Below, in pieces: positions 25,925-62,144 of a stretch of 64,000 nt of DNA. The position numbers were made by a program, and so were the translations under genes. The notes beneath the pieces are model-generated. The model ran no database searches and had not been told where the DNA came from. It saw only the letters and a program-made list of their open reading frames with translations. Numbering within the stretch: position 1 is the stretch's first letter; each line of letters begins with the position of its first letter. This DNA comes from a virus: positions 11,248 to 75,247 of IMG/VR virus record IMGVR_UViG_3300009374_000001; one strand, 5' to 3'.

Positions 25925-26263
25925 ATGAAAACATCAGAATTACAAAAAATAATTAGAGAAGAAATTCAAAGCTTGAATGAAGGCAACATTGCAATAAACA
26001 CTAAGCATAGATATTGGTATGGTGTAGATTCTCCAGAAAAGCAATCTGATAAATTTTTAGTTGCAAATAAAGGTGTTGATAAGAAAAAAATAGAAAATAA
26101 AGATTTACAAATATGGATTACTAAATTTGTAAAAGATAATAAATTAAAAGATGCTTGGGATTATAATTGGATTGCAATGTTTTGCTATTCTATGAAGTAT
26201 ACAAATAAATATAAAAACGTTGATTTAGGTAAAATGGACGAATGGGCAAGAAAAAACCATTAA
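25925..26263 (+). CDS. Hypothetical protein with helical leader
   Basis: MKTSELQKIIREEIQSLNE N-terminus. Confidence 0.6.
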   Translation: MKTSELQKIIREEIQSLNEGNIAINTKHRYWYGVDSPEKQSDKFLVANKGVDKKKIENKDLQIWITKFVKDNKLKDAWDYNWIAMFCYSMKYTNKYKNVDLGKMDEWARKNH

Positions 26264-27026: not shown

Positions 27027-27941
27027 ATGGCAAAGAACGAACTAGACATTTTTAATATCGGCGTAGACGATATTGAAATGCATAAACGAGAAAAGACACA
27101 ATCTGATATTTATAAACCCAATGCACTAGATGGGAAAGATGGCGTTTATAAAGCACTAATCAGATTCATCCCAAACATAAACAATCCTACAAATCCATTA
27201 ATTCATAAATGGGTATATTGGCTGACAGATCAAAATGGTGATGGCAAACTTATAGATTCACCAGGCACTGTTAATAAAGAAGATCCAATTGCAAAGTTGT
27301 TTTTTAAGCTTCGTAAATCTGAATCTGCAGTAGACCGCAAGAATAGCGAAAAGCTTAAGCGCAGAGAACAGTTTTATGGCATTGTTCAAGTTATTAAAGA
27401 CCCACAGAATCCTGATTTAGAAGGTACATTGAAGGTTTTTAAATTTGGTTACAAGATTAAGCAAAAACTTGATGAAGAATTAAAACCTGCATTTGGTGAA
27501 GCTACTCAAATTTTTGATCTTTTTGATGGAAAGAACTTTGAGTTAATTATCACAAGACAGGGCGATTTTAATAATTATGATTCAAGTAAGTTTTCTAACT
27601 CAACATCTCCAATTGCTATTGATGATGTAGAAATGGAACGCAACACAGAAAGTATGGATCTTATTAGAACGCATTTGACTGATAATACACCAAACGTCTC
27701 TGTATTCGAGTATAAAGAATGGGATGATGAAACACATGACTGGGTAAATACATGCTTAAACCAGTATAGAAGTCCTGGGGAGTATATCACATCCACATCT
27801 GCTCCAGTAGTTGAAGAAAAACAAGTAGCGACATCTTTAGTAAATGATGAACAGCCGACTGATACAGAAGTAGCTGGTGATACCAATAAAGATACAGGCG
27901 ACGAAGCTCTTGATGATTTCCTTAATAACTTAGATATTTAA
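27027..27941 (+). CDS. Single-stranded DNA-binding protein, gp32-like
   Basis: ALIRFIP, VFKFGYKIKQKL, FDLFDGKNF and NYDSSKF motifs; acidic tail LDDFLNNLDI. Confidence 0.9.
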   Translation: MAKNELDIFNIGVDDIEMHKREKTQSDIYKPNALDGKDGVYKALIRFIPNINNPTNPLIHKWVYWLTDQNGDGKLIDSPGTVNKEDPIAKLFFKLRKSESAVDRKNSEKLKRREQFYGIVQVIKDPQNPDLEGTLKVFKFGYKIKQKLDEELKPAFGEATQIFDLFDGKNFELIITRQGDFNNYDSSKFSNSTSPIAIDDVEMERNTESMDLIRTHLTDNTPNVSVFEYKEWDDETHDWVNTCLNQYRSPGEYITSTSAPVVEEKQVATSLVNDEQPTDTEVAGDTNKDTGDEALDDFLNNLDI

Positions 27942-29649: not shown

Positions 29650-31149
29650 ATGAAATTATCACTAAACGGAAATAAAAAGATTCTAATAGTTAGCGATGCT
29701 ACTGAACAAGAACTCGAACAGCTTAATGTATCTTTAACTAAAAGAATTGAAAGTTGGAGATTTAATCCTCTTGTTAAGAAGGGAGTATGGGACGGTTATG
29801 TAAGCTATTTTAAAAATGATAAATACATTCCAGCTGGCTTATGGAAAGAAGTTCTAGATATTGCAAAGAAGTTTAAGCTTAATATAGAATTTGATGACTC
29901 AATTAATAAGTTATTTGATAGAAACATTAAATATGAAGATTTTGAAATATGGGTAATTACTTTACTTAAAGAAAGCAATTTAACTCCGCGAGATTATCAG
30001 ATAGAAGCTGCATTTAATATATTAAAGTATAGGAAGTGTCTTACTGAGATGGCTACCTCATCTGGAAAAACATTAGTTGCTTATTTAGTTATTGCGTATT
30101 TGCTAGAATTTGAGAAAACTAAAAAGATTTTATATGTAGTCCCGAACGTTAGCTTAGTTATTCAGGCATCAGAAGATTTTTATGAATATAGTGATAACAG
30201 CCAGATAGATTTAGAAATACAGCAAATTTATTCAGGTAAAAAGATAAAAGACAATTGCAATGTAGTAGTTGGCACATATCAAAGTTTAACTAAAAAGTCT
30301 AAAGAGTATTTTGATGTATTTAACGCTGTAATAGTAGATGAAACACACAAAGCAAAGGCAATTTCGATTAAAAAGATTTTAGAAAAATGCACGTGTGATT
30401 ATTCTATTGGGCTAAGCGGGACGATCCCTAAGCCAGGGACTTTAGATAGACTTACTCTTATGAGCGGTGCTGGACCTGTCGTAACAGATATTGACACAAA
30501 GACATTGCAAGATTCTGGGTATGTTTCTAAATGCAAAGTATCTGTATTAGATTTAAATTATGCACCTCAAAAAACAAGAGATTCATTTGAATCTTTGCAA
30601 AAATCTGGATATGATAGTAAAAAAGTATTTGAACTTGAAAAGAATTATGTAATACAATCTAATACGAGGCTAGATTTTGTCACAGATGTTATAAGCAAAG
30701 TGACAAAAAATACGTTAGTGCTATTTCATAGAATTGAATATGGGAAAACACTATATAAAGAACTTAGAAAATTAAATGATAAAGCAATTTATTATGTCGA
30801 TGGATCTGTTGATGCAGATATTCGAGAAACATATAAAGAAAAAATGGAACACGGGGATGACGTCATATTAATAGCAAGCTTTGGCACATTCAGCACTGGA
30901 ATTTCAGTTAAAAACATACATAATATTTTCTTTACAGAATCGTTCAAGTCAGAAGTCATAATAAGACAGAGTATAGGGAGAGGGTTAAGATTAAGAAAAG
31001 GAAAAGACATGTTAAATATAATTGATTTTGTAGATAATTTTTCTACGCTTAATTGGCAGAATCATTTATATAGACATGGCATAGCAAGACAAAAAATATA
31101 TAAAGAGCAACATTTTCCATTTACTGTTAAAAAGATAAAATTAGCTTAA
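29650..31149 (+). CDS. uvsW: SF2 DNA helicase UvsW
   Basis: PRDYQ, ATSSGKT, VDETH, GLSGT, TFSTGIS and QSIGRGLR. Confidence 0.92.
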   Translation: MKLSLNGNKKILIVSDATEQELEQLNVSLTKRIESWRFNPLVKKGVWDGYVSYFKNDKYIPAGLWKEVLDIAKKFKLNIEFDDSINKLFDRNIKYEDFEIWVITLLKESNLTPRDYQIEAAFNILKYRKCLTEMATSSGKTLVAYLVIAYLLEFEKTKKILYVVPNVSLVIQASEDFYEYSDNSQIDLEIQQIYSGKKIKDNCNVVVGTYQSLTKKSKEYFDVFNAVIVDETHKAKAISIKKILEKCTCDYSIGLSGTIPKPGTLDRLTLMSGAGPVVTDIDTKTLQDSGYVSKCKVSVLDLNYAPQKTRDSFESLQKSGYDSKKVFELEKNYVIQSNTRLDFVTDVISKVTKNTLVLFHRIEYGKTLYKELRKLNDKAIYYVDGSVDADIRETYKEKMEHGDDVILIASFGTFSTGISVKNIHNIFFTESFKSEVIIRQSIGRGLRLRKGKDMLNIIDFVDNFSTLNWQNHLYRHGIARQKIYKEQHFPFTVKKIKLA

Positions 31150-31160
31150 ATATATAATAA
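31149..31160 (+). promoter_or_regulatory. Candidate late promoter heading the cargo cluster
   Basis: AATATATAATAA. Confidence 0.5.
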
Positions 31161-31181
31161 AACAAAAAAACAAAACACATT

Positions 31182-33211: not shown

Positions 33212-33481
33212 ATGAAACAATCAGAATTAAGAAAACTAATTAGATTAACAATTAAAGAGCATATGAATGAAGATTCTTCTGGATCATTTCGGTCTAAGAA
33301 GCAAGTAGAACGGTTGACAAAGGGCAAATCTATTCGAGAAACATTTGTAAACCCATCGGTTGAATATAACGTTACTAACGATGGCGGTATTGTAATTTTT
33401 GGTAAAAGAGAAAAAGTTCATTTTACAAAGCAAGACGTTGAAGCTTTAGTAAAACAACTTAAAAGAAAAGGGATTGCTTAA
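33212..33481 (+). CDS. Small hypothetical protein with helical leader
   Basis: MKQSELRKLIRLTIKEHMNE. Confidence 0.6.
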   Translation: MKQSELRKLIRLTIKEHMNEDSSGSFRSKKQVERLTKGKSIRETFVNPSVEYNVTNDGGIVIFGKREKVHFTKQDVEALVKQLKRKGIA

Positions 33482-34068
33482 TGATTTTAGAGTTTAAACA
33501 ATTCGTAGAGTCTATCCAGTCTGAACATACCGGAGAGAAGGTAATTATATTCCCTGGGAGATTTCAGCCATTTCATAATGGGCATCTTAAAGCATTTGAA
33601 AAAGCTTATAAAATGTTCAAGTTAAGAGTTATACCTATACAAATAGTTAGTAAGAATAAGAACTCTCCAATTAAAGACAAAAAGCTCTTACAAGATATGG
33701 GTAATGCATTAGCAAAAGAGAATAAGAAGTTTATTGCAGATATACTGGTAAAGCCTGACAATGTTATGGGAAATATACCGCAAATGATTAAATGGCTTAG
33801 AAGCATTGGTTATAATCCAATGGGCATGGGAACTGGTGAAGATAGATATAAAGGCTATAAAGGCCAAATTGATTATCTTTTATCAGATAAGTCAGATGTG
33901 CCTACAGAAGAATTTGAATTAAAGGTAGTAGATGATAGAACAAGTGGTGCAAGTGGAACCGCAGTAAGACATGCATTTCAAGATGATGACGCAGATGCAC
34001 TTAAAGCGATGATTCCAGAGGTACTATTCTTTAAATTTTATAATAAAATAAAAAAAGCAATACAATGA
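33481..34068 (+). CDS. HIGH-family (cytidylyl/adenylyl-transferase-like) nucleotidyltransferase
   Basis: IFPGRFQPFHNGH, GEDR and SGTAVR; leader MILEFKQFVE. Confidence 0.85.
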   Translation: MILEFKQFVESIQSEHTGEKVIIFPGRFQPFHNGHLKAFEKAYKMFKLRVIPIQIVSKNKNSPIKDKKLLQDMGNALAKENKKFIADILVKPDNVMGNIPQMIKWLRSIGYNPMGMGTGEDRYKGYKGQIDYLLSDKSDVPTEEFELKVVDDRTSGASGTAVRHAFQDDDADALKAMIPEVLFFKFYNKIKKAIQ

Positions 34069-35072
34069 AGATAACAGAACAGAAATTGAGAAAACTTATA
34101 CAAGAAAACATTAAGACCCTTACTGAAAAACTTAAAAGATCATCTAGTGAATATGATAAATTTGAACAATGGCTAATCACTCTTGATCAAATGACAGTTG
34201 GTCATATACTTGACACGTTTGGGACAAAGTTACCAGACGGAGCAGATTTTGATACACCAGGCTATTTCCAAGATGAAGAACTTGACTACGACGATGCTTA
34301 CGATTTCTTTAGGAGTAACATGGGTGCATCTTGGGTTCAAGATATGGAAAAGTTTTATAGCAAAAATAAATCTAAATGCGATAAATACACAGAAAGATAT
34401 ACAAAGCAACTTAAAATCTTTAACGAAAATCATTTAAATGAAAAAGACGTATGGTCTATTAAAGGCTTAGACTCTTCAGATCAACAGGATGTTAATTTAA
34501 TGAAGCGCGCATTTGAACTTGCAAAAGTTAAAATTATAAAGATAGAAAAATATAACGATAGAGCTTACTTTATTACTTTAATTGCAAAAGATGGCAAAGC
34601 CATTATTGATACAGAGATTGATACTTTAAGTAATGTCTTTTATATGAATGATAATAGAGGCAGAAATAAAATCGGCACACTGCATAGAACAAGTGAAGTT
34701 GTTAAGGGTATTAAAGCTCTTGCAAAACTTCCAGGATTTGGACAAACAAGCTTAGTTAAAGTTAAAGAGTCTTTGGACGAAACATATAAGCTTCGCAAAA
34801 TTATTAGAAAAGAACTTCAAACTTTGAATGAAGCTAAGATGAGCAAGAAAGAATATCAAGAAGCAGCAAAAGAATTTGTTAATCAATGGGAAGATGATTT
34901 TAAACAAAGAATCAAAGATGACGGCGGATTTGATTATGAAGAAATGACATATGACACTGCTCAAGCTAATAACTTATGGAACGATGGACCTAAGATGGAC
35001 GCAGATTGGTTATATGACTATATAGAAAAAGAATTAGAAAAGCGACAGTGGTATAAAAAATACACAAAATAA
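34065..35072 (+). CDS. Multi-module hypothetical protein with N-terminal and internal helical leaders
   Basis: MKITEQKLRKLIQENIKTLTE; internal HLNE; internal YKLRKIIRKELQTLNE. Confidence 0.6.
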   Translation: MKITEQKLRKLIQENIKTLTEKLKRSSSEYDKFEQWLITLDQMTVGHILDTFGTKLPDGADFDTPGYFQDEELDYDDAYDFFRSNMGASWVQDMEKFYSKNKSKCDKYTERYTKQLKIFNENHLNEKDVWSIKGLDSSDQQDVNLMKRAFELAKVKIIKIEKYNDRAYFITLIAKDGKAIIDTEIDTLSNVFYMNDNRGRNKIGTLHRTSEVVKGIKALAKLPGFGQTSLVKVKESLDETYKLRKIIRKELQTLNEAKMSKKEYQEAAKEFVNQWEDDFKQRIKDDGGFDYEEMTYDTAQANNLWNDGPKMDADWLYDYIEKELEKRQWYKKYTK

Positions 35073-35082
35073 AAATAATACA

Positions 35083-35310
35083 GTGAAAGAGCAAGAATTA
35101 AGAAAACTTATTAGAAAAGAGCTTAACGAACGTATTTCTGGTTATGATGAATTTGATGTAGCAGTTAAAATTGATTCTGCTATGGAAAAGCTTGACAAAA
35201 ATATGGGAGTTGAAGTATTTGCAAAGGGTATTGCTAATATGTTTAATGACGTATATGGGAAAGAATATGCAAAAGATTTTTATGAAAATATTAACAAAAA
35301 ATATCAATGA
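35083..35310 (+). CDS. Small hypothetical protein with helical leader
   Basis: GTG start, MKEQELRKLIRKELNE. Confidence 0.6.
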   Translation: MKEQELRKLIRKELNERISGYDEFDVAVKIDSAMEKLDKNMGVEVFAKGIANMFNDVYGKEYAKDFYENINKKYQ

Positions 35311-36188
35311 TTAAAACTTTTAAAGAGTTCTTGAAGCTTTATGAAAGCGGTAATGCTATTGATGACGTAAGACCTATTTTAGGTAGAGAGATACCTGAAA
35401 CCTTAGAGCATGTAGAAAGGGATCTTTTAAATGCAGTAGGTTTAGATGGTTTTGATATAGATGCAGCAGTTATAGGTTCAGCTGGAAAGAAAGGCGATGA
35501 TATAGAATCAGGAGATATTGATATTGCGGTAAGTATTGATAAACTTGCAGGTGAAAACTCAACTTCTATCAATGAAGTATTAAAGTTTTTAAATATGACT
35601 TTAAAAGCTGCAGGTTATGATACTGCAGTTAATTATGGATTCAAACAAGTTTCAGTGCCATTTCCTATTAAAGGAGATAAAGCCAATGGATATTGTCAAG
35701 TTGACTTAATGCTTTCGGATAGCTTAGAATGGTCAAAATTTATGTATCATAGTCCAGATTTTACCAAGACAGAGTCAAGATATAAAGGTGCATACAGAAA
35801 CTTATTAATGATGGCAATTGCAACAGAGTCTAAAAAAGAAGCCACTAAGAAACTAGACACTGGAGAAACCGTTGAATATGAGCAGTTAGTCATTAGATTA
35901 AATACAGGTCTTGTTAAAGTTAGAAAGTCTTTACAGGGTAAACGTGGCTTGGTTAAAACACCTAAACTTTTAAAAGATTTTGATAGAGTTGTAAGCAATG
36001 TTCCAGATGAAGTAGCTGAAGCTTTATTTGGTGAAGGCGTTAAAGCTAAAGATATAATGACATTTGAAAAATGCTGGGATCTTTTTAATTCAAAAACATT
36101 TCCATATAAAAATAAAGAAGATATTATTATACAAAAATTTGAAATATATTTAAGTAAATCAAAGTTACCATTCCCTGAGGAACTATAA
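35307..36188 (+). CDS. Pol-beta-superfamily nucleotidyltransferase with CTS-like leader
   Basis: IGSAGKK...SGDIDIAV and third Asp in QVDLM; leader MIKTFKEFLKLYE. Confidence 0.75.
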   Translation: MIKTFKEFLKLYESGNAIDDVRPILGREIPETLEHVERDLLNAVGLDGFDIDAAVIGSAGKKGDDIESGDIDIAVSIDKLAGENSTSINEVLKFLNMTLKAAGYDTAVNYGFKQVSVPFPIKGDKANGYCQVDLMLSDSLEWSKFMYHSPDFTKTESRYKGAYRNLLMMAIATESKKEATKKLDTGETVEYEQLVIRLNTGLVKVRKSLQGKRGLVKTPKLLKDFDRVVSNVPDEVAEALFGEGVKAKDIMTFEKCWDLFNSKTFPYKNKEDIIIQKFEIYLSKSKLPFPEEL

Positions 36189-37090
36189 TGAAAATTGAAT
36201 CATATTCAAATTATACAACTCTACAAGAGGCTAAGCTTTATGGCTTTACTATTAAACAACTGTTAAACAGTACCTTAAAATTTAAAGGTAAGACTCTAAT
36301 TTATTTTGATACTGAAACACTAGGGCTTAAGCCTCATGTAGATTATATTCAGCTTACGCAAGTTGCAGCAATTGCGTATGATGGCTCAACTATGAAAGAA
36401 CTTGATTCGTTTAACACTAAGGCTAAATTAGGAGACCCCGCAAAGCATTTATTAAAACCTGATTCTGATGAAAGAAAAGGATGGGAAGAAAGACAAAAGG
36501 CAAGAGGTAAAAGTAAAGGGTTAAGCAATCCTGATGAACTCTTAAAAATGACAAGATACGGCGATGAGGGTGTTGATTTTATAGAAGAGAAAAAATCAAT
36601 AGAAGATTTTATTTCATTTATATCTAAGTTTAAAGATCCTATTTTAATTGCGCACAATGCACCCTTTGATATGAAATTTATGCATGTAAGAGCTAAATTA
36701 TTTGATTTAAAGTTCCCTAAAGCTGAAGTATTAGATACATTAAAATTGTCAAGACTTTATTTTGTTCCTCTTTTACAAGCTGCTGAGAATAGCAAAGAGT
36801 TAGAAAGTATTTTAACAGCTTTATCTAATAAGTTAAAAACAGGAGAACGTGGAAACAAAGTTTCATCGACGCTTGGAAATTTAGGAAAGGCGTTAGGCGT
36901 AAGTGTTGATTCATGGCATGACGCAAAAGCTGATGTTGAGATGTTAATGCAAATTGTTGAAAGAATGAAAGAATTCTTTACCCAATACATTGATATAGAT
37001 ATTAGTAAGGAGCATCAGCATGCTGCAAAACTCGATGCTCTTTCTAAAAAGCCTTGGTGGTGGTCTAAGAAAAAGAAATACAGGATATAA
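36188..37090 (+). CDS. DEDDh 3'-5' exonuclease (DnaQ-like) with CTS-like leader
   Basis: FDTETLGL, AHNAPFD and WHDAKADV; leader MKIESYSNYTTLQE. Confidence 0.85.
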   Translation: MKIESYSNYTTLQEAKLYGFTIKQLLNSTLKFKGKTLIYFDTETLGLKPHVDYIQLTQVAAIAYDGSTMKELDSFNTKAKLGDPAKHLLKPDSDERKGWEERQKARGKSKGLSNPDELLKMTRYGDEGVDFIEEKKSIEDFISFISKFKDPILIAHNAPFDMKFMHVRAKLFDLKFPKAEVLDTLKLSRLYFVPLLQAAENSKELESILTALSNKLKTGERGNKVSSTLGNLGKALGVSVDSWHDAKADVEMLMQIVERMKEFFTQYIDIDISKEHQHAAKLDALSKKPWWWSKKKKYRI

Positions 37091-37497
37091 TGAAAATTAA
37101 ATCATATCCAAATTATATTACAGAAAATCCAGACAAGATCTATGTTGGTAAGGTAAATGAGTTTGATTATTTAAAATCAGAGCTTGATAATGCTAAGAAA
37201 GTTTTTAAAGAATTACAGAAGATGTACCCAGATATTCCAAAGTTTCCATTAGTCTTTAAAGATTTAAAGGGAAGAGGGAGTGGGTTTTTAACTACGACTA
37301 GATTAAGAGGCGGCAAGTTTATTTTTATAGATAAAATGACTATCGATAATACAGGTTTAACTAGTAACCCAGCGGACTATGCAGTGTGTCATGAATTTGC
37401 TCATGCAATTCTTGCACATACAAAGCAATCGCTTGCTCATAGTAAAGCACACGACAAGCTTACATATAAACTTGCAAAAAAATTTAATTTAGTATGA
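37090..37497 (+). CDS. SprT-like HExxH metallopeptidase with CTS-like leader
   Basis: VCHEFAHA...AHSKAH; leader MKIKSYPNYITE. Confidence 0.65.
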   Translation: MKIKSYPNYITENPDKIYVGKVNEFDYLKSELDNAKKVFKELQKMYPDIPKFPLVFKDLKGRGSGFLTTTRLRGGKFIFIDKMTIDNTGLTSNPADYAVCHEFAHAILAHTKQSLAHSKAHDKLTYKLAKKFNLV

Positions 37498-38558
37498 AAA
37501 TTAAATCATATACAAACTTCATTAATGAAGGTGGCTGGTCAAGTGCAAAGACACAATCTACTGTATTAACCCCACATGTTTTAAAGCTTGCACATGAAAC
37601 ATTACAAAGTATTTTTAAAGAGTTTAATGCCTGGCTTGATAAAGAAGGAATGCCTCCGATGAAACCAATACGGGCAGTTGGCTCAGGCAGTTATTGGGAA
37701 GATGATTTAGTTAATCAACCAGATAAATTATATGGTGATATTGATTACTTATTTGAATATCCGATTTTAGAGTTTGATCCAAATCCTACAAATAATAGAA
37801 AAAATGAATTAGATACAATTAAGCTTTATAATGAAATGCTTTTAGATTGGATAAAGGCGTTTAAGCCAAATTCTGTTGATTATGAAGAGTCTGTTAAGAT
37901 ATCAAGCCCAACAAGTATTAAGCTTTTAATAATTCCAAAAGATGACATGTTTATACAAGCAGACATTTTAATTACTAGTGGCATCTATAAAGATTGGGCG
38001 ATAGGTAGATATACACCAGTAAAAGACATAAAAGGTTTTGTTATTGGCTATTTGTATAAAGCAATTGGCTTGACTTTAACCATGAGCTTTCTTGATAGAG
38101 GAGTAAGAGCAAAGTTTATTGATGGTAACTTAGTTAGTTTTAGAAAGAGAAAAAATGTCGAAGAGATGATTATTAGTTTAGACTTTGGCAACTTCTTATA
38201 CGATATTGCTGAATGGGCAATGGAATTTGATGGTAAGAATAAAAAGAAGATGAAAGTACATAAGCTCCTAAAGCAGCAAAAAGGTTTAACAAGAGATAAT
38301 GTTACACTTGAAAAATTCTGTGTAGGCATTAAGGGTCTTGCATATACATTAGAAATGAACGACTTATTACACATATTCTCTCTTTCAAGTGCAGATGACA
38401 TGATAAACAAGACAGAAGAAAATTATATAAATTCAATATCTGATGTAAGGCATAGCAGTAAGTTTAAGAAAGCTGAAACAGCTCATGCTAGGGCTGCTAT
38501 GGAGAAGATATTTAAATTCATTGATTATGGAATAGAAACAGTAAGTAGAAGTTTATGA
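37494..38558 (+). CDS. Pol-beta-superfamily nucleotidyltransferase with CTS-like leader
   Basis: VGSGS...YGDIDYL and IQADIL; leader MKIKSYTNFINE. Confidence 0.7.
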   Translation: MKIKSYTNFINEGGWSSAKTQSTVLTPHVLKLAHETLQSIFKEFNAWLDKEGMPPMKPIRAVGSGSYWEDDLVNQPDKLYGDIDYLFEYPILEFDPNPTNNRKNELDTIKLYNEMLLDWIKAFKPNSVDYEESVKISSPTSIKLLIIPKDDMFIQADILITSGIYKDWAIGRYTPVKDIKGFVIGYLYKAIGLTLTMSFLDRGVRAKFIDGNLVSFRKRKNVEEMIISLDFGNFLYDIAEWAMEFDGKNKKKMKVHKLLKQQKGLTRDNVTLEKFCVGIKGLAYTLEMNDLLHIFSLSSADDMINKTEENYINSISDVRHSSKFKKAETAHARAAMEKIFKFIDYGIETVSRSL

Positions 38559-40792
38559 AATCACTATATAAAGAAAAGAACTTAGACAAATTATTTAAAC
38601 AGAGTCTTTTAGTAACAGAAAAGATTGACGCGCCTAGAATTAAGGTGAAGAAAGTTAACGATGGTTTTGAAATATTTAAGGCAAATTCAAATACGGCATT
38701 AAACGTAGTTGATAGAACTTTAACATCATTATACGAAAATGCGTATGAGCATTTTTCAAGTTTTTGGAAAGATATGATTGAAGAAGTCCCAGATAATTAC
38801 ATATTTGAAATGTATTATATGACTAATACAAAGCCAGTAAGAACTGAATATGACAGGCTACCGAAGAATAATCTAATACTTATATCAATTCAAGTAATGG
38901 AGAATGATAAAGTTAAAAAGATTATTAGAGAGCCTAAGATACTAAATGAATGGGCAGATAAATTTGAAATAGAACACCCGCCTATTTTATTTAACGATAA
39001 ATTAAGTGAGAATCAGAAATTTAAGTTAAAAGAGTTGCTATCACAGAGCAGTAAAGATGTTTTTGGGCTATTCAGTAATAGTTCATTTACAGCACATATT
39101 ATGTCAGTGCTAGACCCTAGAATTCATGAGATGACACTTAACAAAGATACACATAAGAATACTAATGGATTTATTTTTACATTTCATGCAGGAAAGGTTG
39201 TTTCTAATCTGCTACTACAGAGCTCTCTTAAAGAAAGTAATGATTCATATACGCCTAATGATTCATACGACTTAGTATTACTAGACTTAGTAGAATATAT
39301 GATAAAAGATGAATCATGGGAGCATATTTTGCTTAAAGAACATGGTGAAGATTTAAGATATTTAGAGTGTATCTCAAATATTTTTAATATGTATATGGAA
39401 AAGAATATGCATAGACTTTTAGGAATGAGTTTAGAGAAAATGGATTTTGCAAATAAGCCAGAATTTAAACTTAATAAAAAAAATATTAAGAACAAAAGAA
39501 CTAACGAATTATTAGACATTCATGTTTTAAGTGAAATCTTTCAGGCAATGTTGGGTAGTTTCAGAAAGCATAGAAGCAAAGAAACTACACTAATTTCAAA
39601 TGCTGCTATTACAGAAATAAATTTATTGATTGATAAGATTAATGAAAAGATAGGAAAAGAACCAGATATTATAGAGGACAGCGATGAAGTTAAAGATTTT
39701 GAAAGTTTTATGATTAGTGAAGGTAGAGATGAAATAATTAATAATATAAATCTTTCATTGAAAGACTTGGAGATTGATCAATTAAATTATATCAATACAT
39801 ACATTAATAAACAAGGATTAAGTTCAAAAATTAAAGAGATTTTTTCAGGCTTAGGCTTAACGACTGGTATAGATAAAGTAGTTAATGGCTTTTTATCTTT
39901 ATTAGTTGGCGCAGGCGGATCATTAGAAGATAATATAGAAATAGTTGATAAATTATCAATAGACGGGACGTTATTCAATGATTTAGATATTGGGAAGGTG
40001 TCAAATTTTAAGAATAATTTAATTACTAATAGCAAATTTCACACAAAGCTTATCAAGACTTTTATTGACTGGGAGCCTAAAAAAATAGATAAATCTGCAA
40101 TTGGAAAAGGAGAAGCATTTTTAATTGCTTTATTGGGCGGACGAAAAGCAGAACATGGAGATATTAAAATAGGTGATAATAATTATGAAGTTAAAGGTAG
40201 AGGGGCTCGATTAAAAGCGCAAAGGGGCTATGGTACTTTTATAAATAATGAAAAAACTTTCATTAAAGATTTTTCTAGTGTTGTTAACTATGGGTTTACA
40301 CCAAAAGAGAAAATAAATAATAAATATTTAGATAAAAAGAAAAATATACTACCCTTTAAAGAAATATCTAAAAACATTAACAATATTAATTTTACTGATA
40401 AAGGATTATCAATGTATAGAGAGTTTATATTAAATGCAGATAACCCACTTAAAGCTGTAGAAGTATTACAAGAGTTGTTTAGAAAGATTTTTGTAAATGT
40501 TAGTAATTTTAATGAATTATCATTTTTAGATACTTTAAATTCATCCGCTTCAGAAAAAAAGATGCTTATGGATTTTAAATTAGAGTACAGCAGATTTATA
40601 TTTGATTATTATAAGAAACAAGAAAAATGGGATTATTTAATGTTTATAAATTTAGATAACGCTAATTATGTCTGCATTGAAAAATCTAATGAATTTGTGA
40701 ATTTAATAAAAAATGGAAAAATAAAAATAAATGTAAGCCATAGCTGGACCCAAACACAAAATAATGTTCCACAATATACATTAGTGGCTTAA
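38555..40792 (+). CDS. Fusion: degenerate ligase-like N-domain plus C-terminal PD-(D/E)xK-like nuclease domain
   Basis: VTEKIDA (KxDG-like) near the start; internal VKDFESFMISE; IGKGE...GDIKIGDNNYEVKG. Confidence 0.5.
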   Translation: MKSLYKEKNLDKLFKQSLLVTEKIDAPRIKVKKVNDGFEIFKANSNTALNVVDRTLTSLYENAYEHFSSFWKDMIEEVPDNYIFEMYYMTNTKPVRTEYDRLPKNNLILISIQVMENDKVKKIIREPKILNEWADKFEIEHPPILFNDKLSENQKFKLKELLSQSSKDVFGLFSNSSFTAHIMSVLDPRIHEMTLNKDTHKNTNGFIFTFHAGKVVSNLLLQSSLKESNDSYTPNDSYDLVLLDLVEYMIKDESWEHILLKEHGEDLRYLECISNIFNMYMEKNMHRLLGMSLEKMDFANKPEFKLNKKNIKNKRTNELLDIHVLSEIFQAMLGSFRKHRSKETTLISNAAITEINLLIDKINEKIGKEPDIIEDSDEVKDFESFMISEGRDEIINNINLSLKDLEIDQLNYINTYINKQGLSSKIKEIFSGLGLTTGIDKVVNGFLSLLVGAGGSLEDNIEIVDKLSIDGTLFNDLDIGKVSNFKNNLITNSKFHTKLIKTFIDWEPKKIDKSAIGKGEAFLIALLGGRKAEHGDIKIGDNNYEVKGRGARLKAQRGYGTFINNEKTFIKDFSSVVNYGFTPKEKINNKYLDKKKNILPFKEISKNINNINFTDKGLSMYREFILNADNPLKAVEVLQELFRKIFVNVSNFNELSFLDTLNSSASEKKMLMDFKLEYSRFIFDYYKKQEKWDYLMFINLDNANYVCIEKSNEFVNLIKNGKIKINVSHSWTQTQNNVPQYTLVA

Positions 40793-40800
40793 ATATATAA
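40792..40800 (+). promoter_or_regulatory. Candidate late promoter
   Basis: AATATATAA before ORF 40819. Confidence 0.4.
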
Positions 40801-40818
40801 AAAAACAAATATAAAATT

Positions 40819-42024: not shown

Positions 42025-42480
42025 ATGAAATTTTATAAATTAAGAGATGTTAAAAGTCCGGTTCGTGGCACAAAAGAAAGTGCAGGATTGGACTTTTTTA
42101 TACCAGATGATTGGAATGATGGTAATACTAAATTAGTAAAACCAGGTGAAAGCTTATTAATACCGAGCGGTATTAAAGCAAATGTCCCTAAAGGATTTGC
42201 ATTAATAGCTTTTAATAAATCAGGAATTGCAGTTAAAAAACAATTATATGTAGGTGCTTGTGTAGTAGATGAAGATTACCAAGGAGAAATTCACATTAAT
42301 GTAAGCAATGTATCTAGGGATACTGTAACAGAGGTTAGCCCTGGGGATAAAATCATGCAATTTTTATTATTACCTATAAATTATGAATTACCAATCGAGG
42401 TAAATTCAGAAGAAGAATTATGGAAAGACAAAGCCAGTGAAAGAGGCACTGGTGGCTTTGGATCAACTGGAACAAATTAA
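42025..42480 (+). CDS. dut: Trimeric dUTPase
   Basis: SAGLDF, KSGIA, VVDEDYQGEI, MQFL and RGTGGFGSTG. Confidence 0.95.
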   Translation: MKFYKLRDVKSPVRGTKESAGLDFFIPDDWNDGNTKLVKPGESLLIPSGIKANVPKGFALIAFNKSGIAVKKQLYVGACVVDEDYQGEIHINVSNVSRDTVTEVSPGDKIMQFLLLPINYELPIEVNSEEELWKDKASERGTGGFGSTGTN

Positions 42481-48746: not shown

Positions 48747-49886
48747 ATGGCAAAATCAAAATTTTCATTTGATGATTTAAACGCTGAACTAGAAAAGTCA
48801 TCAACGACATTTAGTTTAGGAACTAGAATGGATAAATCTACATTCGCAGATGTAACTGAATTTATAAATACAGGAAATTATGCACTAAACGCATGTCTTT
48901 CAGGTTCATTATTTAAGGGTTGGCCAAATAATAGAACTATGGCCATTGCAGGACCAAGCGGTACTGGAAAAACATTTTTAGTATTAAATTCAATTAGAGA
49001 AGCAATCAGGATGGGCTATAACATTGTATTTTATGACTCTGAAGCTGCAGTGGATAAAGAACTTATGGCTAAATTTAATATTGATACTACAAAAGTTCGA
49101 TATGAACCAGTCGCGACAGTTCAAGAATTTAGAACAAAAATTACTGGGCTTACAGATTTTGTGCAAAAGAGACTTCGTAAGAATGAAGATGTGCCGAAGT
49201 TAATGGTTATTTTGGATTCAGCTGGAAGTCTTGCAACAGATAAAGAAGTTGATGATGCAATAACAGGTTCTAGCAAAGCTGATATGACAAGAGCAAAAGT
49301 ACTAAAAAGCATATTTAGAATCATTACAGTAAGATTAGCAGAATGTAAAATACCTATGATATTTACAAATCATACGTATATGACACAGAGCTTTATTAGC
49401 CAATCAGTTGCAGGCGGTGGAACAGGCCCTGAATATTCTGCTTCGATTATTTTATTCTTGACAAAGGCACAGCTAAAAGAAAAAGATGTAAAAGCAGGAA
49501 TTATTGTTACTGCAAAGCCAAACAAGAATAGATTTGCAAAACCTAACCCTATAAAATTTCATATTCATTATACTAAAGGGATGAATCCTTATGTCGGGCT
49601 TGAGCAGTATATTGATTGGAAAGATATTGGTATTGCCAAGGGAAAGATAGTAAAAGGCGAAAAGGTTTTAGTCAAAACAGCTAGGCAATGGATCTGTAAG
49701 CATCTTGATGAAACAGTTTCAAATGCAGATTTTTTTACAAGCAAAGTATTTACACAAGAAGTACTTGAAAAAATAAATGAAAAAATCCAGCTATTATTTA
49801 ATTATGGTGATGTTGAAGATCATGAGACGACTGAAGATTTTTTAAGCCAAACTAAAGAAGTTGATGAAGAAGAAGCTAACGTTTAA
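48747..49886 (+). CDS. uvsX: RecA-like recombinase UvsX
   Basis: AGPSGTGKT, YDSE, ILDS, FTNHTY and GGGTG. Confidence 0.92.
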   Translation: MAKSKFSFDDLNAELEKSSTTFSLGTRMDKSTFADVTEFINTGNYALNACLSGSLFKGWPNNRTMAIAGPSGTGKTFLVLNSIREAIRMGYNIVFYDSEAAVDKELMAKFNIDTTKVRYEPVATVQEFRTKITGLTDFVQKRLRKNEDVPKLMVILDSAGSLATDKEVDDAITGSSKADMTRAKVLKSIFRIITVRLAECKIPMIFTNHTYMTQSFISQSVAGGGTGPEYSASIILFLTKAQLKEKDVKAGIIVTAKPNKNRFAKPNPIKFHIHYTKGMNPYVGLEQYIDWKDIGIAKGKIVKGEKVLVKTARQWICKHLDETVSNADFFTSKVFTQEVLEKINEKIQLLFNYGDVEDHETTEDFLSQTKEVDEEEANV

Positions 49887-51929: not shown

Positions 51930-53003
51930 ATGAATAATTTTAAAAGAATATGGATGATTTCTGATACGCACTGGGGTGCAAGAGCAAATTCATCAATGTG
52001 GCAAGATACTATAGAGAACTATCATAGAAAAGTTTTTATACCATTACTTAAGAAAGAAGTTAAAAAGGGTGATGTTCTCGTACATGCTGGAGATATGTTT
52101 GATAATAGACAAACGCTTAATTTATTAGTTGGCAATGCTGCTCTTAGTGTCTATACAGAAATTGCAAAAATACTACCCATTTACATCATAGTAGGTAATC
52201 ATGACATTTACAGAAAAAAAACTAATGATATATCTAGCCTTGATTTTTTAAAGAATGTTGAAAATATACATGTACTAAAAGACGCAAAGGTTTTTGAATG
52301 GTCAGAAGAAAAAGTATTACTAATGCCGTGGCAAAGCGATAGAGAGTCAGAAATTAATACAATTACAGAACATAGTAGCGCAAGTATTGTCATTTGCCAT
52401 TCTGAAGTAGCAGGGGTGCAGTTAAATCATGGGATCAAAAGTTTTGATGGTGTACCTATTGCAAATTATAAGAAATTTAAGCAAGTATTCTCTGGGCATA
52501 TACATCATAGAGCTCTATATGATAATGTACAAATGCTAGGCTGCCCTTATCAAATTACACGCTCTGATACAAAGAACTCTAAAGGCGTGACATTATATGA
52601 TATTAAAAAAGATGAAATTGTCTTCTTTGAGAATAACTATAGCCCTAAGTTTTTGAAAATACCACTTGACAAGATACTTGATTTTAAGCTAGAAGAGTTA
52701 AAGAAAGTAGTATGTAATAATTATATAGACTTATACATACCATCGAAAATTGCAAGTAAATATAATATGTCATTATTGCTTCAAGAACTTCAAAATATTT
52801 CAAAAACAATAGACCCGATAATATATGATGAAAATGAAAATATAAATCTTAGCATATATCACATGAGTGATTTTAGTGGTAGTGCAATGGATATAGTGGA
52901 TCTTGCTAAAAAGCATATTGCTAGTACAACGTATGATGATAAATTAAAGAAAAGGATATTAGATACAGTTTTAGAATTATACAGTGACTGTCAGAAGATA
53001 TGA
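51930..53003 (+). CDS. Mre11/SbcD-like nuclease, gp47
   Basis: SDTHWG, GDMFDNR, GNHD and SGHIH. Confidence 0.92.
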   Translation: MNNFKRIWMISDTHWGARANSSMWQDTIENYHRKVFIPLLKKEVKKGDVLVHAGDMFDNRQTLNLLVGNAALSVYTEIAKILPIYIIVGNHDIYRKKTNDISSLDFLKNVENIHVLKDAKVFEWSEEKVLLMPWQSDRESEINTITEHSSASIVICHSEVAGVQLNHGIKSFDGVPIANYKKFKQVFSGHIHHRALYDNVQMLGCPYQITRSDTKNSKGVTLYDIKKDEIVFFENNYSPKFLKIPLDKILDFKLEELKKVVCNNYIDLYIPSKIASKYNMSLLLQELQNISKTIDPIIYDENENINLSIYHMSDFSGSAMDIVDLAKKHIASTTYDDKLKKRILDTVLELYSDCQKI

Positions 53004-54679
53004 AAATAAAATATATAGAGTTTAAGAATATTGCGAGCTATGGAAATAAGACGCAACGAATAGAATTTAAAGATGAAGCGACTGTATTAAATTTAGTAGT
53101 CGGTAAAAATGGAAGCGGCAAGAGCACCATTTCAAATGCAATAGTATTTGCGCTTTATGGGAAAGTCGATAACATGAAGTTAAATGATTTACCTAACAGA
53201 ATTAACAAAGGGTTAGAGACTAAAATTAGCTTACTGTGCGGGAACAGAGATGTAATTATTGAACGAAAACTACAACCTAAAGATCTTAAAGTAACAATTA
53301 ATGACATTGAAATTGATATAGCAGGTAAGACTAGTATTGAAGACTTTTTAGAAAAAGAAATATACAAAATACCGTATCAAGTATTCAAGAACGTTATTAT
53401 ATTATCAATTAACGATTTTAAATCTTTTCTTACAATGACGCCTACAGATAAACGTAGTGTAATTGACAAAATATTTGGTTTTAGCATTATTAACGATATG
53501 CAAATAAATATTAAAGAACGTAAAAAGATTACAAATGATGAACTTACTGTGGTTGAGGCAGAATTAAATGCAGTAACAGATTCAATTAATCATGTAAATT
53601 CTAAAATTAGCGATTTGCATGCGCTTGATTCTAAGAAGAATAAAAAGAAACTTAAAATTTTACAAGAAACTTTAATAGATTTAGAAGATAAACAAGAAAA
53701 ATTAAATGCTAACTTAGTTAAGTTTGCTGATAAATCTGTAGATATAATAGCAGCAAAAGACGATGAGCTTTCTGCGCATGCTATGAAAAATTCACGTTTG
53801 AATGAAGCTACTGCAAAGTTAAAACTTTATAAATCTTCGAAATGTCCCACATGTGAAAGCAGCTTAATAACAGAGTGGCATGATAATAATAAAGAAAAAT
53901 ATAAACAAATAGTAAAAGTAGTCCCTGAAGATTTAGTTAAAATCGAGGAAAAAGTTAATAAATTAGATATAGCACTAAACGGCATTAAGAGTAAAGAAAA
54001 AGAATCACATACGCGCGCTGGTAAGTTAAGTGCTAACATTTCAAATGTTAATAGGAATATTAATGAATTATCAAGTAGTTTAGAAATTAATACAAATGAC
54101 GAATATGAGAATCTTAATAGTTTAATTAAAGACTTTAAGAAAAAAGAGAGTATTAAGATGACAAAAAATAATGAACTTGTAGATGAAAGACATTTCATTG
54201 ATGTTTTAGATCTAGTAATAGGGGACGAGGGAATAAAGGGTATGGCGATTCAAAGCGTGTTGCCAATTTTAAATAATACTATAACTGCAATGTTAAAGAA
54301 AATGCATTTGAATTTCTCAATTAAATTTGATGAAAGCTTTAAAGTGAATGCAACGCATTTAGGAGAAGAAATACATATAGGGTCGCTATCTACTGGCGAA
54401 AGAAAGAAAGTTGATTTTGTTGTAGTAATTGCAATCATAAAGATTTTAAAAATGAGATTTCCACAATTAAATATTTTATTCTTAGATGAAATATTTAGTT
54501 CTGTTGACGCAGACGGAATATATAATATATTAACAATATTAAATAAAGTTATTAAAGAAAATGGCATTAATACATTTGTAATTAATCACACAGTATTACC
54601 ACATGAAATATTTGATAATAAAATTGAAATATATAAAGAAAACGGGTTTAGTAAAATGAATATCGAAAAAATAGAATAA
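53000..54679 (+). CDS. Rad50/SbcC-like ATPase, gp46
   Basis: GKNGSGKST, CPTC hook, LSTGE and LFLDE. Confidence 0.92.
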   Translation: MKIKYIEFKNIASYGNKTQRIEFKDEATVLNLVVGKNGSGKSTISNAIVFALYGKVDNMKLNDLPNRINKGLETKISLLCGNRDVIIERKLQPKDLKVTINDIEIDIAGKTSIEDFLEKEIYKIPYQVFKNVIILSINDFKSFLTMTPTDKRSVIDKIFGFSIINDMQINIKERKKITNDELTVVEAELNAVTDSINHVNSKISDLHALDSKKNKKKLKILQETLIDLEDKQEKLNANLVKFADKSVDIIAAKDDELSAHAMKNSRLNEATAKLKLYKSSKCPTCESSLITEWHDNNKEKYKQIVKVVPEDLVKIEEKVNKLDIALNGIKSKEKESHTRAGKLSANISNVNRNINELSSSLEINTNDEYENLNSLIKDFKKKESIKMTKNNELVDERHFIDVLDLVIGDEGIKGMAIQSVLPILNNTITAMLKKMHLNFSIKFDESFKVNATHLGEEIHIGSLSTGERKKVDFVVVIAIIKILKMRFPQLNILFLDEIFSSVDADGIYNILTILNKVIKENGINTFVINHTVLPHEIFDNKIEIYKENGFSKMNIEKIE

Positions 54680-56822: not shown

Positions 56823-57194
56823 ATGCCAAGAAAGCGCGGTAAGTACTTTGTAGACAATAAAGAGCTATATAGACAGATAAAAATTTCAAAAGAGCAAGAT
56901 GAACTAACTAAAGAAGCATTAGATATGCTTATGTTAATTGCTCAGCGCGCTATTACACGTTTAACATTTGTTAGACCTGATGATAAAGAAGATTGTTTAG
57001 CATCTGCTTATATGGACTTAATTAAATATTGGAGAAATTTTAATCTTGATTATACAAACCCATTTGCATATTACACAGAAATTGCTAAGCGGGGTTATGC
57101 AAAAGCATGGAATAAGCTTTATCCTAAAAAATATAAAGGGACAATAAGCTTAGATTCTGGATTTGATGATGACGGAGGTATTTATTCCATTTAA
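56823..57194 (+). CDS. Late-transcription sigma factor, gp55-like
   Basis: YFVDNKEL and NPFAYYTEI. Confidence 0.85.
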   Translation: MPRKRGKYFVDNKELYRQIKISKEQDELTKEALDMLMLIAQRAITRLTFVRPDDKEDCLASAYMDLIKYWRNFNLDYTNPFAYYTEIAKRGYAKAWNKLYPKKYKGTISLDSGFDDDGGIYSI

Positions 57195-57195
57195 C

Positions 57196-57669
57196 ATGGG
57201 TATAAAAGATGTAAAACCTTCTAAAGGCAGGCCATATAACCAGGGCTATTACCGACTAATAAACGAGTCTAAGTATGTTGGTGAGCACCCAATCATCTAC
57301 AGAAGTAGCTGGGAAAGGAAATTTTGCATTTATTGTGATAAAAAAGCTGAAATAATTAAATGGAGTTCTGAGCCATTAGGCATAAAATACATAAATCCTC
57401 TTTCTAATAAAGAAAGCATATATTACCCAGATTTTTACATGGAAGTTTTACAAAAAGATAATACAGTAAAGAAATTTTTAGTAGAGATTAAGCCAAAGTC
57501 TCATTTACAGAAGCCAAAGAAACCTAAATTAAATAGAACAAGCTCAATAAAAAGTTTTAAGTATTTAGCAAACGAGTATATGAAAAACGTGGTTAAGATA
57601 AAAGCAGGAAAAGAATATGCAAAGTCTAAGGGTTGGGATTTTATTGTTATTACAGAGGATAGTATATGA
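57196..57669 (+). CDS. Head completion nuclease, gp4-like (TnsA fold)
   Basis: YRSSWE, WSSE, YYPDF, VEIKP and FIVITE; start taken at ATG 57196. Confidence 0.88.
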   Translation: MGIKDVKPSKGRPYNQGYYRLINESKYVGEHPIIYRSSWERKFCIYCDKKAEIIKWSSEPLGIKYINPLSNKESIYYPDFYMEVLQKDNTVKKFLVEIKPKSHLQKPKKPKLNRTSSIKSFKYLANEYMKNVVKIKAGKEYAKSKGWDFIVITEDSI

Positions 57670-60254: not shown

Positions 60255-62144
60255 ATGTTGAATAATACAGGTCTTTTAATTCTTGAGAGAAGTGACAATC
60301 CACTAAGTAAATCAGATGAATATATTCTTAGCGGAGTTTTTGGTCAAATTGGCATTAAGAATAAGAATAATAGAATTTATGACAAGAAGGAGCTATTGCC
60401 ACAGATAGAAGCTTTACAGAATAAAATTAAAGCAAGAACACTTTTAGGTGAACTTGATCATCCAGAAAAGTTTGATGTTAGTTTATCGAAGGTCTCTCAT
60501 ATGATTGAAGAACTAATATATGAAGAAGATTCTGGTTTAGTTAAAGGTAGATTAAGACTGTTAGATACTAGTGCAGGCAAAGAAGCCAAAGCATTAGTTG
60601 ATGCTGGCATCCCAATTCATATTTCAAGTAGAGCCGCTGGTTCTGTAAAAGAAAATGGCCATGTTCAAATTGAAAAACTTTTTACATATGATTTAGTTGC
60701 AGATCCTGGTTTTGAAAATGCACAACTTAAAAGGGTTAATGAATCATTAGGTTTTGATAATGATTCAAATGTTCAAATCTTTGAAGTTCAAGGTTATGAT
60801 GAAGCAATAAAAGAAACTGAGGTTACTTCTACACCAGAAGCAGTTAAAGTTGAAGATTTTAACAAGTATTCAAAATATCTTTCATCTGAGCTTAACAAGA
60901 TTAAAGATACAATAAAAGAACCAATTAAGGAAGATAAAAAACCAGAAGAAACTTTAAAATATGTACAGTATTTAGCAGAAACTCTTGACAAGGTTATTTC
61001 ACATAATGACTATCTTGTAAAGAATTTAAATAATACTGTTGCATATACAGAATATCTTGGTGAAAATCTTGATAGCAATATACAATATGCCGAGCATGTT
61101 GCAAAGTCTACTAAAGAAGTTACAGAGTATTCAAATTATCTTGGTGAAAACTTAGAAAATACCCAAGAATACACAAATTATTTAGGTGAAAACATCAGTA
61201 AAGTTATTGATTATGCAGAATATCTTAAAGAAAATTTAGAAACTGTTGGAGATTACTCAGATTATATTGGACTTTCAATTGATGAAATTAGACAGAAGTT
61301 TAATGAAGATCATGATGAATTGGAAGAACTTGATGAAGAACTTGATTTAGAAATAATTGAGGAAGATGAAACAGAAGACATTGAAGATGAAACTGCTGAT
61401 TTAGTCGAACCTGAAGAAGCTGAAGAAGTAGAAGAAGCTGAAGAAGTAGAAGAAGTAGAAGAAGCTGAAGAAACAGAAGACATCGAAGAAGCTGAAGAGC
61501 TTCAAGCTGAAGAACTCGATTTAGAAATAATTGAGGAAGAAAAGCCAGAAGAAGATTTTTATGAAAATGAAAAAATTAAAAGAGTTAAAGACTCTAAACA
61601 GATTATAGCAAAAAATTATAAATCTGAAATAGCTGAAAAGCTAGAAGAATTAGTAAATGCTGCTCATAAACAAACAGCAGCGACTGACGAAGGTGATCTA
61701 CACTTCTTAAAATTCGTAGGTCAAGAAAAACGCAATGAATTTGATTCTCTTTCAGATGATAATAAAGCAAGATTAGTTAAAGTTTTTGAAAGCAAAAACT
61801 ATACTAACGAGAGCGATGTTATTACTGAATGGAATAACGAGTTCGATGAAAACAAAGATACTGAGCCTAAGTTCGTTAAGCTTATGCCAAGTGAATATAA
61901 AGAAGAATGGGAATCATTAACTGAAGAACATCAAAATCTTATATATGCACAAGCTACGCATTTCAATTTAAATTCTCAATATCAAATTGACAGTTTTTGG
62001 CAAGGCAGAAACATGAAAGCTAGAAAAGTTGTTTTAGAAAAGCTTGAAAGCAAGAAAGTTGATGCTCCGAAAGTTAAAAAACTGGTTGAAGAATCTTACT
62101 TGGATGGTTTCCAAAAGAATCTCGCAATGCGTTTTAAAAAATAA
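60255..62144 (+). CDS. Prohead protease (gp21-like) fused to a scaffold/core region
   Basis: NKNNRIY, LGELDHP, ISSRAAG and YDLVADPG, followed by 14-aa YxxYLxEN repeats and a Glu-rich tract. Confidence 0.88.
   Translation: MLNNTGLLILERSDNPLSKSDEYILSGVFGQIGIKNKNNRIYDKKELLPQIEALQNKIKARTLLGELDHPEKFDVSLSKVSHMIEELIYEEDSGLVKGRLRLLDTSAGKEAKALVDAGIPIHISSRAAGSVKENGHVQIEKLFTYDLVADPGFENAQLKRVNESLGFDNDSNVQIFEVQGYDEAIKETEVTSTPEAVKVEDFNKYSKYLSSELNKIKDTIKEPIKEDKKPEETLKYVQYLAETLDKVISHNDYLVKNLNNTVAYTEYLGENLDSNIQYAEHVAKSTKEVTEYSNYLGENLENTQEYTNYLGENISKVIDYAEYLKENLETVGDYSDYIGLSIDEIRQKFNEDHDELEELDEELDLEIIEEDETEDIEDETADLVEPEEAEEVEEAEEVEEVEEAEETEDIEEAEELQAEELDLEIIEEEKPEEDFYENEKIKRVKDSKQIIAKNYKSEIAEKLEELVNAAHKQTAATDEGDLHFLKFVGQEKRNEFDSLSDDNKARLVKVFESKNYTNESDVITEWNNEFDENKDTEPKFVKLMPSEYKEEWESLTEEHQNLIYAQATHFNLNSQYQIDSFWQGRNMKARKVVLEKLESKKVDAPKVKKLVEESYLDGFQKNLAMRFKK
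60960..61270 (+). repeat. 14-aa (42-nt) coding repeat, about 8 units
   Basis: YVQYLAETLDKVIS / YTEYLGENLDSNIQ / YSNYLGENLENTQE / YTNYLGENISKVID / YAEYLKENLETVGD and others. Confidence 0.8.

Follow-up and report, generated by a model that had tools for sequence, protein, structure and literature searches.

Why do three adjacent genes for unrelated proteins begin with almost the same DNA? The question is raised by a locus in a 64,000-nucleotide stretch of viral DNA (positions 11,248 to 75,247 of IMG/VR record IMGVR_UViG_3300009374_000001; hereafter the window), in which an exonuclease gene, a peptidase-like gene and a gene for a protein of 354 amino acids (aa) each open with a short N-terminal leader, nearly alike over 27-36 nucleotides. 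An earlier note on this DNA had taken such leaders for recombination cassettes that keep exchangeable cargo genes in frame with a packaging tag. Our analysis suggests that, taken as one explanation, the three 5′ ends are probably copies of the phage's own flavour of a T4-type capsid-targeting propeptide that serve as points of cargo exchange. The parent contig of the window is 75 kb long with 31% GC, and the stretch is present in 8 marine/seawater metagenome runs from 2 studies.

Likeness of the three leaders and codon bias

The leaders and their cargo genes are arranged as follows.

36188..36229, + strand: leader MKIESYSNYTTLQE of the exonuclease gene, with the aromatic pair Y6/Y9 and the ending L-Q-E
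36188..37090, + strand: cargo of 300 aa, a DEDDh-type exonuclease (RNase_T, PF00929, E = 1e-10; phrog_192)
37090..37125, + strand: leader MKIKSYPNYITE of the HExxH peptidase-like gene, with Y6/Y9 and the ending I-T-E
37090..37497, + strand: cargo of 135 aa, a small HExxH (CHEFAH) peptidase-like protein with a weak SprT-like match (E = 0.02)
37494..37529, + strand: leader MKIKSYTNFINE of the 354-aa gene, with Y6/F9 and the ending I-N-E, fitting the pattern Y-x-x-F-I-x-E of the T4 capsid-targeting sequence (CTS)
37494..38558, + strand: cargo of 354 aa belonging to no recognised family, with 15 homologues of equal length

The three leader strings quoted in the earlier note are present exactly, at 36188 (ATG AAA ATT GAA TCA TAT TCA AAT TAT), 37090 (ATG AAA ATT AAA TCA TAT CCA AAT TAT) and 37494 (ATG AAA ATT AAA TCA TAT ACA AAC TTC). 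Pairwise identity within this trio is 25/27, 23/27 and 22/27, the longest exact run being 18 nucleotides (nt; 37090 vs 37494), and the three pairs hold ranks 1-3 among the 2,485 gene-start pairs of the 75-kb contig, so that near-identical 5′ ends on three adjacent unrelated genes are borne out. The genes abut tightly: the exonuclease stop overlaps the peptidase-like start (TAATG), the peptidase-like stop overlaps the start of the 354-aa gene (ATGA), there is no intergenic space at the three gene junctions, and the 18 nt upstream are poorly conserved. The three cargo bodies are unrelated and gave no mutual matches; whole-gene tandem duplication was ruled out because the bodies share no similarity.

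The exonuclease named in the earlier note was confirmed by the RNase_T match. Its peptidase rests on the C-H-E-F-A-H motif, whose HEFAH is invariant across 12 peptidase homologues, together with the weak SprT-like match; a PDB sequence search with the 135-aa protein gave no meaningful match. Its nucleotidyltransferase, the 354-aa protein, shows a GS...DxD motif by eye, otherwise unconfirmed, and had no match in Pfam or PDB sequence searches.

Next in rank among the gene-start pairs are those of a second, helical type of leader. A repeat search over 25-42 kb returned the trio and a helical set (25909/33196/35067) as its top two direct-repeat families, and DNA sharing between helical leaders, also pointed out in the earlier note, amounts to 20/21 identical nt between the strings at 33224 and 35095.

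25925..25981, + strand: helical-type leader MKTSELQKIIREEIQSLNE of a 112-aa gene, third member of repeat family D1
33212..33271, + strand: helical-type leader MKQSELRKLIRLTIKEHMNE of an 89-aa gene, repeat family D1
34065..34127, + strand: helical-type leader MKITEQKLRKLIQENIKTLTE of a 335-aa gene
35083..35130, + strand: helical-type leader VKEQELRKLIRKELNE of a 75-aa gene, bearing the core shared with that at 33224

Other aromatic leaders of the contig, such as MGIIKTFENFINE and MRLHSFKDFVNE, have the T4 CTS spacing too, and the totals reach at least nine aromatic-type and at least six helical-type leaders on one contig.

The identity was set against a codon null, in which the peptides are fixed and synonymous codons are redrawn from the contig's usage. 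For the trio, 64.8 +/- 3.8 identical of 99 positions are expected and 76 were observed (p = 0.004, uncorrected for post-hoc choice), and p was unchanged when the null was built on the usage of the first 14 codons; the helical pair gave p = 0.015. The codons shared within the trio are the commonest ones throughout, with 6/7, 4/5 and 7/8 per pair against an expected 3.7, 2.6 and 4.3, and the three forms of the variable codon 7 (TCA, CCA, ACA) are one base apart, as variants of a single template would be. Family D2 is 65-74% identical when all 54 nt are taken. The trio consensus DNA had no exact match in IMG/VR.

Codon bias therefore explains most of the identity, not all, and the excess over it is real but modest. 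Leader arrays of relatives were examined in the same way, on metagenomic contigs (L-numbered) with at most about 50% protein identity to the window; the arrays of L024 and L035 lie more than 6 standard deviations (SD) above the codon null. Synonymous identity, to which the earlier note appealed, thus exceeds the codon-bias expectation modestly in the window and strongly in these two arrays.

Resemblance to the T4 capsid-targeting sequence

In phage T4 the CTS is MKTYQEFIAE, in which targeting depends on positions 4 and 7 and processing on positions 8 and 10, and gp21 cleaves after L/I-x-E (PMC9026906; PMC8442874). The K-S-Y-T-N-F-I-N-E of the window, with the general form K-S-Y-x-N-[YF]-I-x-E, has spacing equal to that of the T4 CTS, and T4 ipI begins MKTFKEF, almost the leader of the relatives L005 and L092. 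At the DNA level, T4 ipII and ipIII are identical at 30/30 coding nt plus 15 nt upstream (T4 sequence AF158101).

The homologues place the end of the leader at the expected cut site. Among 12 aligned exonuclease homologues, 11 carry a Glu, mostly as [LI]-x-E, directly before the conserved body, whatever their leader; one homologue has W-E there. The leaders of 15/15 homologues of the 354-aa protein stop just before GG[WF], each with a Glu at this boundary and with x-N-E in 13/15. Because the leader resembles the T4 CTS, we infer that it would act as a packaging tag, and head packaging followed by leader cleavage is a well-founded expectation. Beside these sites, the peptidase carries at 37126-37161 a second segment, 12 residues long (NPDKIYVGKVNE), that separates the leader from the conserved body, ends V-N-E and is absent from the closest homologues; it could be the vestige of an older leader, or else another cut site.

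The head genes of the contig are likewise of T4 type.

58594-60186: gp20 portal (PF07230, E = 6e-79)
60255..62144, + strand: prohead protease of the Peptidase_S77 family (T4 gp21 family; PF03420, E = 1.9e-13) with a long C-terminal extension
62163-63509: gp23 capsid protein (PF07068, E = 8e-45)

The protease gene has the portal gene on one side and the capsid protein gene on the other, and its product presumably cuts the leaders off after [LI]-x-E.

Among known systems, the T4 ip loci come closest (Mullaney & Black 1996; Repoila 1994; both as cited in PMC9026906, PMC3012670 and PMC2839356). The two share unrelated proteins that each carry a short N-terminal leader with aromatics three apart and an I/L-x-E site, leader DNA that is nearly identical between neighbouring genes, variation in the number, order and identity of open reading frames (ORFs) among relatives, and a gp21-family protease encoded with the gp20 portal and gp23 capsid protein. 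They differ in several respects. T4 internal proteins (IPs) are small and basic, whereas the cargo here spans 135-354 aa and includes a 300-aa exonuclease, the 135-aa and 354-aa proteins being enzymes by motif only; the genes here overlap and have no conserved promoter or ribosome-binding-site block, so that the coding leader is the only repeat; a single contig bears both leader types in the numbers given above; and relatives fuse cassettes in frame via internal leaders. The giant phages phiKZ and SPN3US also have propeptide-tagged ejection proteins, and a gp21-related protease cleaves many of the proteins inside their heads after Glu (PMC5694885, PMC7411985). The tie to such giant phages is that the capsid protein of the contig is nearest to the versions of uncultured huge phages, with 52% identity to LR756500. 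Propeptides of phiKZ and SPN3US are long and dissimilar and are not known to form a repeated short leader, and we know of no recombination role proposed for them.

Cargo boundaries and leader flavour in relatives

If leaders are points of exchange, breakpoints between relatives should fall on them. L010 contains one extra leader+cargo unit relative to L008, a 656-nt cassette lying between two leader copies that are 33/42 identical and carrying a 218-aa cargo absent from L008. The 60 nt 5′ of the L008 gene at 1570 match the region 5′ of the L010 gene at 870 (53/60), the L008 cargo downstream of the 1570 start matches the L010 gene at 1526, and similarity switches inside the leader; as the two contigs align, their difference is a one-cassette insertion or deletion between direct leader repeats. 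A block of 95% identity between L006 and L092 extends as far as the final codon (Glu) of the internal leader MLTFKEYLNE, and a second one, of 90% identity, resumes at the ATG of the exonuclease leader, with two small genes between the blocks in L006 and a peptidase copy in L092. The breakpoints in relatives, which the earlier note had proposed to map by alignment, thus lie at leaders in both pairs; breakpoints away from leaders and identity due wholly to codon bias, the outcomes it had named as counting against its idea, were both tested for and neither occurred.

Other relatives show the same boundary. L004 and L005 are 84% identical across exonuclease and peptidase, with homology ending 30 nt into unrelated third genes, and the window has another third gene still after the conserved peptidase 3′ end. 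Within the MKTFK clade, 20 contigs display at least eight cassette orders downstream of a DUF6267 gene. Homology between relatives repeatedly ends 22-41 nt into the next gene, and several blocks confined to the exonuclease start at the leader ATG and extend 35-41 nt beyond the start of the next gene. Block edges lie near a leader ATG in 29/92 cases, vs 4% for random positions, a count that is descriptive only because retrieval of the loci was biased.

Leader flavour was also compared across genomes. The leader of orthologous exonuclease and peptidase genes changes from phage to phage: it is MKI[KE]SY in the window, MKTFKQF or VRTFKEF in L005/L092, MKSFI in L007, MIKLK.LL.E in L085/L087/L088, MKLLLENWRKY in L024/L030/L031/L035, and of the helical types LREYIR or MKITKxQLR in L008/L010/L012. 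Flavour tracks genomes rather than cargo. The closest homologues of the peptidase are 80% identical in the body and carry the leader MIKLKDILLE instead, and more distant ones carry MKTFE/MRTFKEF; the leader would therefore have been replaced or homogenised within lineages. Genome-specific flavour together with the remaining synonymous excess argues for leader DNA having been copied or homogenised among neighbouring genes.

Long arrays of a third flavour of aromatic leader were observed in two relatives. Seven consecutive genes of L024 (1520-5447) begin MKL[LV][LF]ENWR.., in this contig as MKL[LV]LENWR[KR], and the Leu codons CTC-CTA-CTT recur in the same order in 4/7 of their leaders; six genes of L035 (3076-6252), five of them consecutive, begin likewise, and their leaders look mosaic, with a 5′ half like one subgroup and a 3′ half like another. 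The marine leader motifs were not found in the searchable literature.

Fused cassettes occur as well. The HIGH-type nucleotidyltransferase ORF of relatives lacks a stop and continues in frame across an internal leader (ES-MLTFKEYLNE or MLLKTYTKFKKEISE) and on into a second cargo (L004:1323-2849, L006:39-941, L092:1833-2825, L095:4584-5576). The partner varies by phage, being the exonuclease, a 77-aa protein or the peptidase, and the arrangement is polyprotein-like. Genes for GIY-YIG (Seg-like) homing endonucleases, which may stimulate local recombination, lie within the cargo arrays of relatives at L095:4105-4584, in L097 (a 159-aa ORF) and at L085:3471-4328.

Searches elsewhere were negative: megablast against 50,697 phage records found no relatives of the locus, neither the helicase nor the 354-aa protein nor a 745-aa protein gave a match when scanned singly against IMG/VR, and an IMG/VR scan with the exonuclease gave only distant GC-rich contigs without leaders.

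These comparisons with relatives support the leader-as-cassette idea of the earlier note. Each cassette opens with a 30-40-nt in-frame repeat, and the genes abut through overlapping stop and start codons; in the mechanism that we propose, the leaders are therefore the exchange points at which cargo is gained, lost or exchanged with frame and tag intact. The likely agent would be the T4-like recombination machinery of the phage acting on short homology, and homologous recombination between leaders is the mechanism that we infer. The contig encodes a T4-type recombination set, and a DnaB-like helicase is also encoded among its T4-type replication and recombination genes.

27027-27941: gp32
29650-31149: UvsW
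48747..49886, + strand: RecA/UvsX-type recombinase
51930-54679: Mre11/Rad50

The exchange idea itself has T4 precedent. For recombination in T4, less than 50 bp of homology is reported to suffice (PMC2839356), and conserved flanking sequences were proposed by Repoila 1994, as cited in PMC2839356 and PMC3012670, to mediate the shuffling of IP ORFs. Arbiol 2010 (PMC2839356) described PeSL (promoter-early stem-loop) cassettes in the T4-type phages RB49 and phi1, in which short repeats lie on either side of one ORF within hyperplastic regions; the phage's own recombination system was proposed to cut out and insert such cassettes, and inverse PCR (polymerase chain reaction) showed mini-circles. The present locus resembles these in having short repeats that flank single-ORF cassettes, whereas the PeSL repeat is a ~100-bp intergenic promoter plus stem-loop and the repeat here is 30-40 nt, coding, and without intergenic space. 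Integron cassettes are likewise single-gene arrays exchanged at a short repeated site, unlike which the site here is translated in frame. Among the genes examined, neither an integrase nor an attC-like site was noticed, no dedicated search having been made.

More tentatively, a broader proposal is possible: that one 30-40-nt coding leader is at once capsid address, cut site and recombination site across a broad uncultured group of T4-related marine and huge phages. Cassettes would then be integrase-free and in frame, enzymes would be shuffled between phages, polyprotein fusions would be tolerated because each internal leader is also a cut site, and the trio of the window would be the freshest local product.

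Should the leaders function like those of T4, a changeable protein kit would be loaded into the capsid and injected with the DNA, both by this phage and by many of its relatives in the ocean. To this kit would belong an exonuclease, a peptidase-like protein and probable nucleotidyltransferases. Exchange bounded by leaders would account for the fast diversification of the kit with its address tag retained, and would carry the 1994 T-even observation over to abundant uncultured phages. In annotation, cargo could be taken to start after [LI]-x-E, and the leaders suggest short natural tags for putting foreign proteins into the heads of non-model phages.

Other explanations and further features of the contig

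Several points weigh against leaders as exchange points. Codon bias alone yields 65% of the 77% identity, and the excess, found post hoc, would be borderline once corrected. Leaders of the window match exactly over no more than 18 nt, a short length for homologous recombination, and in any phage selection makes surviving rearrangements tend to end at gene borders. Relatives were retrieved via the exonuclease or the peptidase, and block edges are thereby biased toward those genes. The arrays of L005, L007 and L012 show no synonymous excess; therefore, peptide-level constraint can keep leaders alike without DNA copying. In the phage's own population, the assembled contigs of 4 of the 8 runs, in which rare forms are hidden, are identical across the locus with no variant, and they contain no credible leader-to-leader joint. 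Joints listed in these contigs were judged spurious because their sides are only 21-24 nt long at 80% likeness and leaders are not joined. On leader joints, the population contigs give neither support nor counter-evidence.

A rival explanation is convergence, in which fit to the same scaffold and protease, together with AT-rich codons, makes the leaders alike, and selection on random (illegitimate) rearrangements places the borders at leaders. Peptide and codon bias already account for the expected 64.8 of 99 identical positions, the shared codons are all commonest ones, and the leaders of L007, one of the three arrays lacking an excess, differ at synonymous positions (TCA/TCG, ATT/ATA, TAT/TAC). 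Convergence does not predict the excess of the trio (p = 0.004), nor the L024 and L035 arrays at >6 SD with three different Leu codons in the same order. Random joins should leave variable spacers, whereas the junctions are codon-precise, falling at the final Glu in L006/L092 and inside the leader in L008/L010. We thus consider convergence as the whole explanation unlikely, and copies of a T4-type propeptide at which cargo is exchanged remain the preferred reading.

A role at the RNA level, with the peptide secondary, is very improbable. Here the repeat would be a translational operator or coupling element, as are the T4 RegA targets, or an unstructured A-rich start. It does contain the ATG and overlap the upstream stop (TAATG, ATGA), and efficient starts are typically rich in A/T, with AAA in second position. 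However, the upstream bases are poorly conserved, as is the full length of family D2, and conservation tracks the amino-acid pattern of the T4 CTS (aromatics at i and i+3, then I-x-E), which homologues hold despite quite different DNA; the null built on the usage of the first 14 codons, moreover, gives the same p.

Mis-joining of contigs by assemblers at repeated leaders deserves hardly any credence: all relatives are metagenomic contigs and L024 leaders share up to 26 exact nt, but arrangements recur in independent samples (L092 with L095/L097; L090 with L091; L093 with L096), the L004 fusion protein represents a cluster of 39 member sequences, and the L008/L010 junction leaders, identical at 33/42, have exact runs far below the longer assembly k-mers in common use.

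Three further features of the sequence were recorded. Just 5′ of the head genes, a 168-aa ORF (57163-57669) encodes an N-terminal domain like that of TnsA endonucleases (PF08722, E = 2e-18). At three gene ends or intergenic spots of the cargo region (31133-31170, 34019-34056 and 40776-40813) there is an AT-rich repeat (TTAAATATATAA...AAAAA), which may be a promoter-like or terminator-like signal. Finally, very deep short contig pieces of other organisms from the same samples (depth up to ~700) match the FDTETLG motif region of the exonuclease at 36275-36318, and also 42349-42432; related exonuclease genes therefore appear abundant in these waters.

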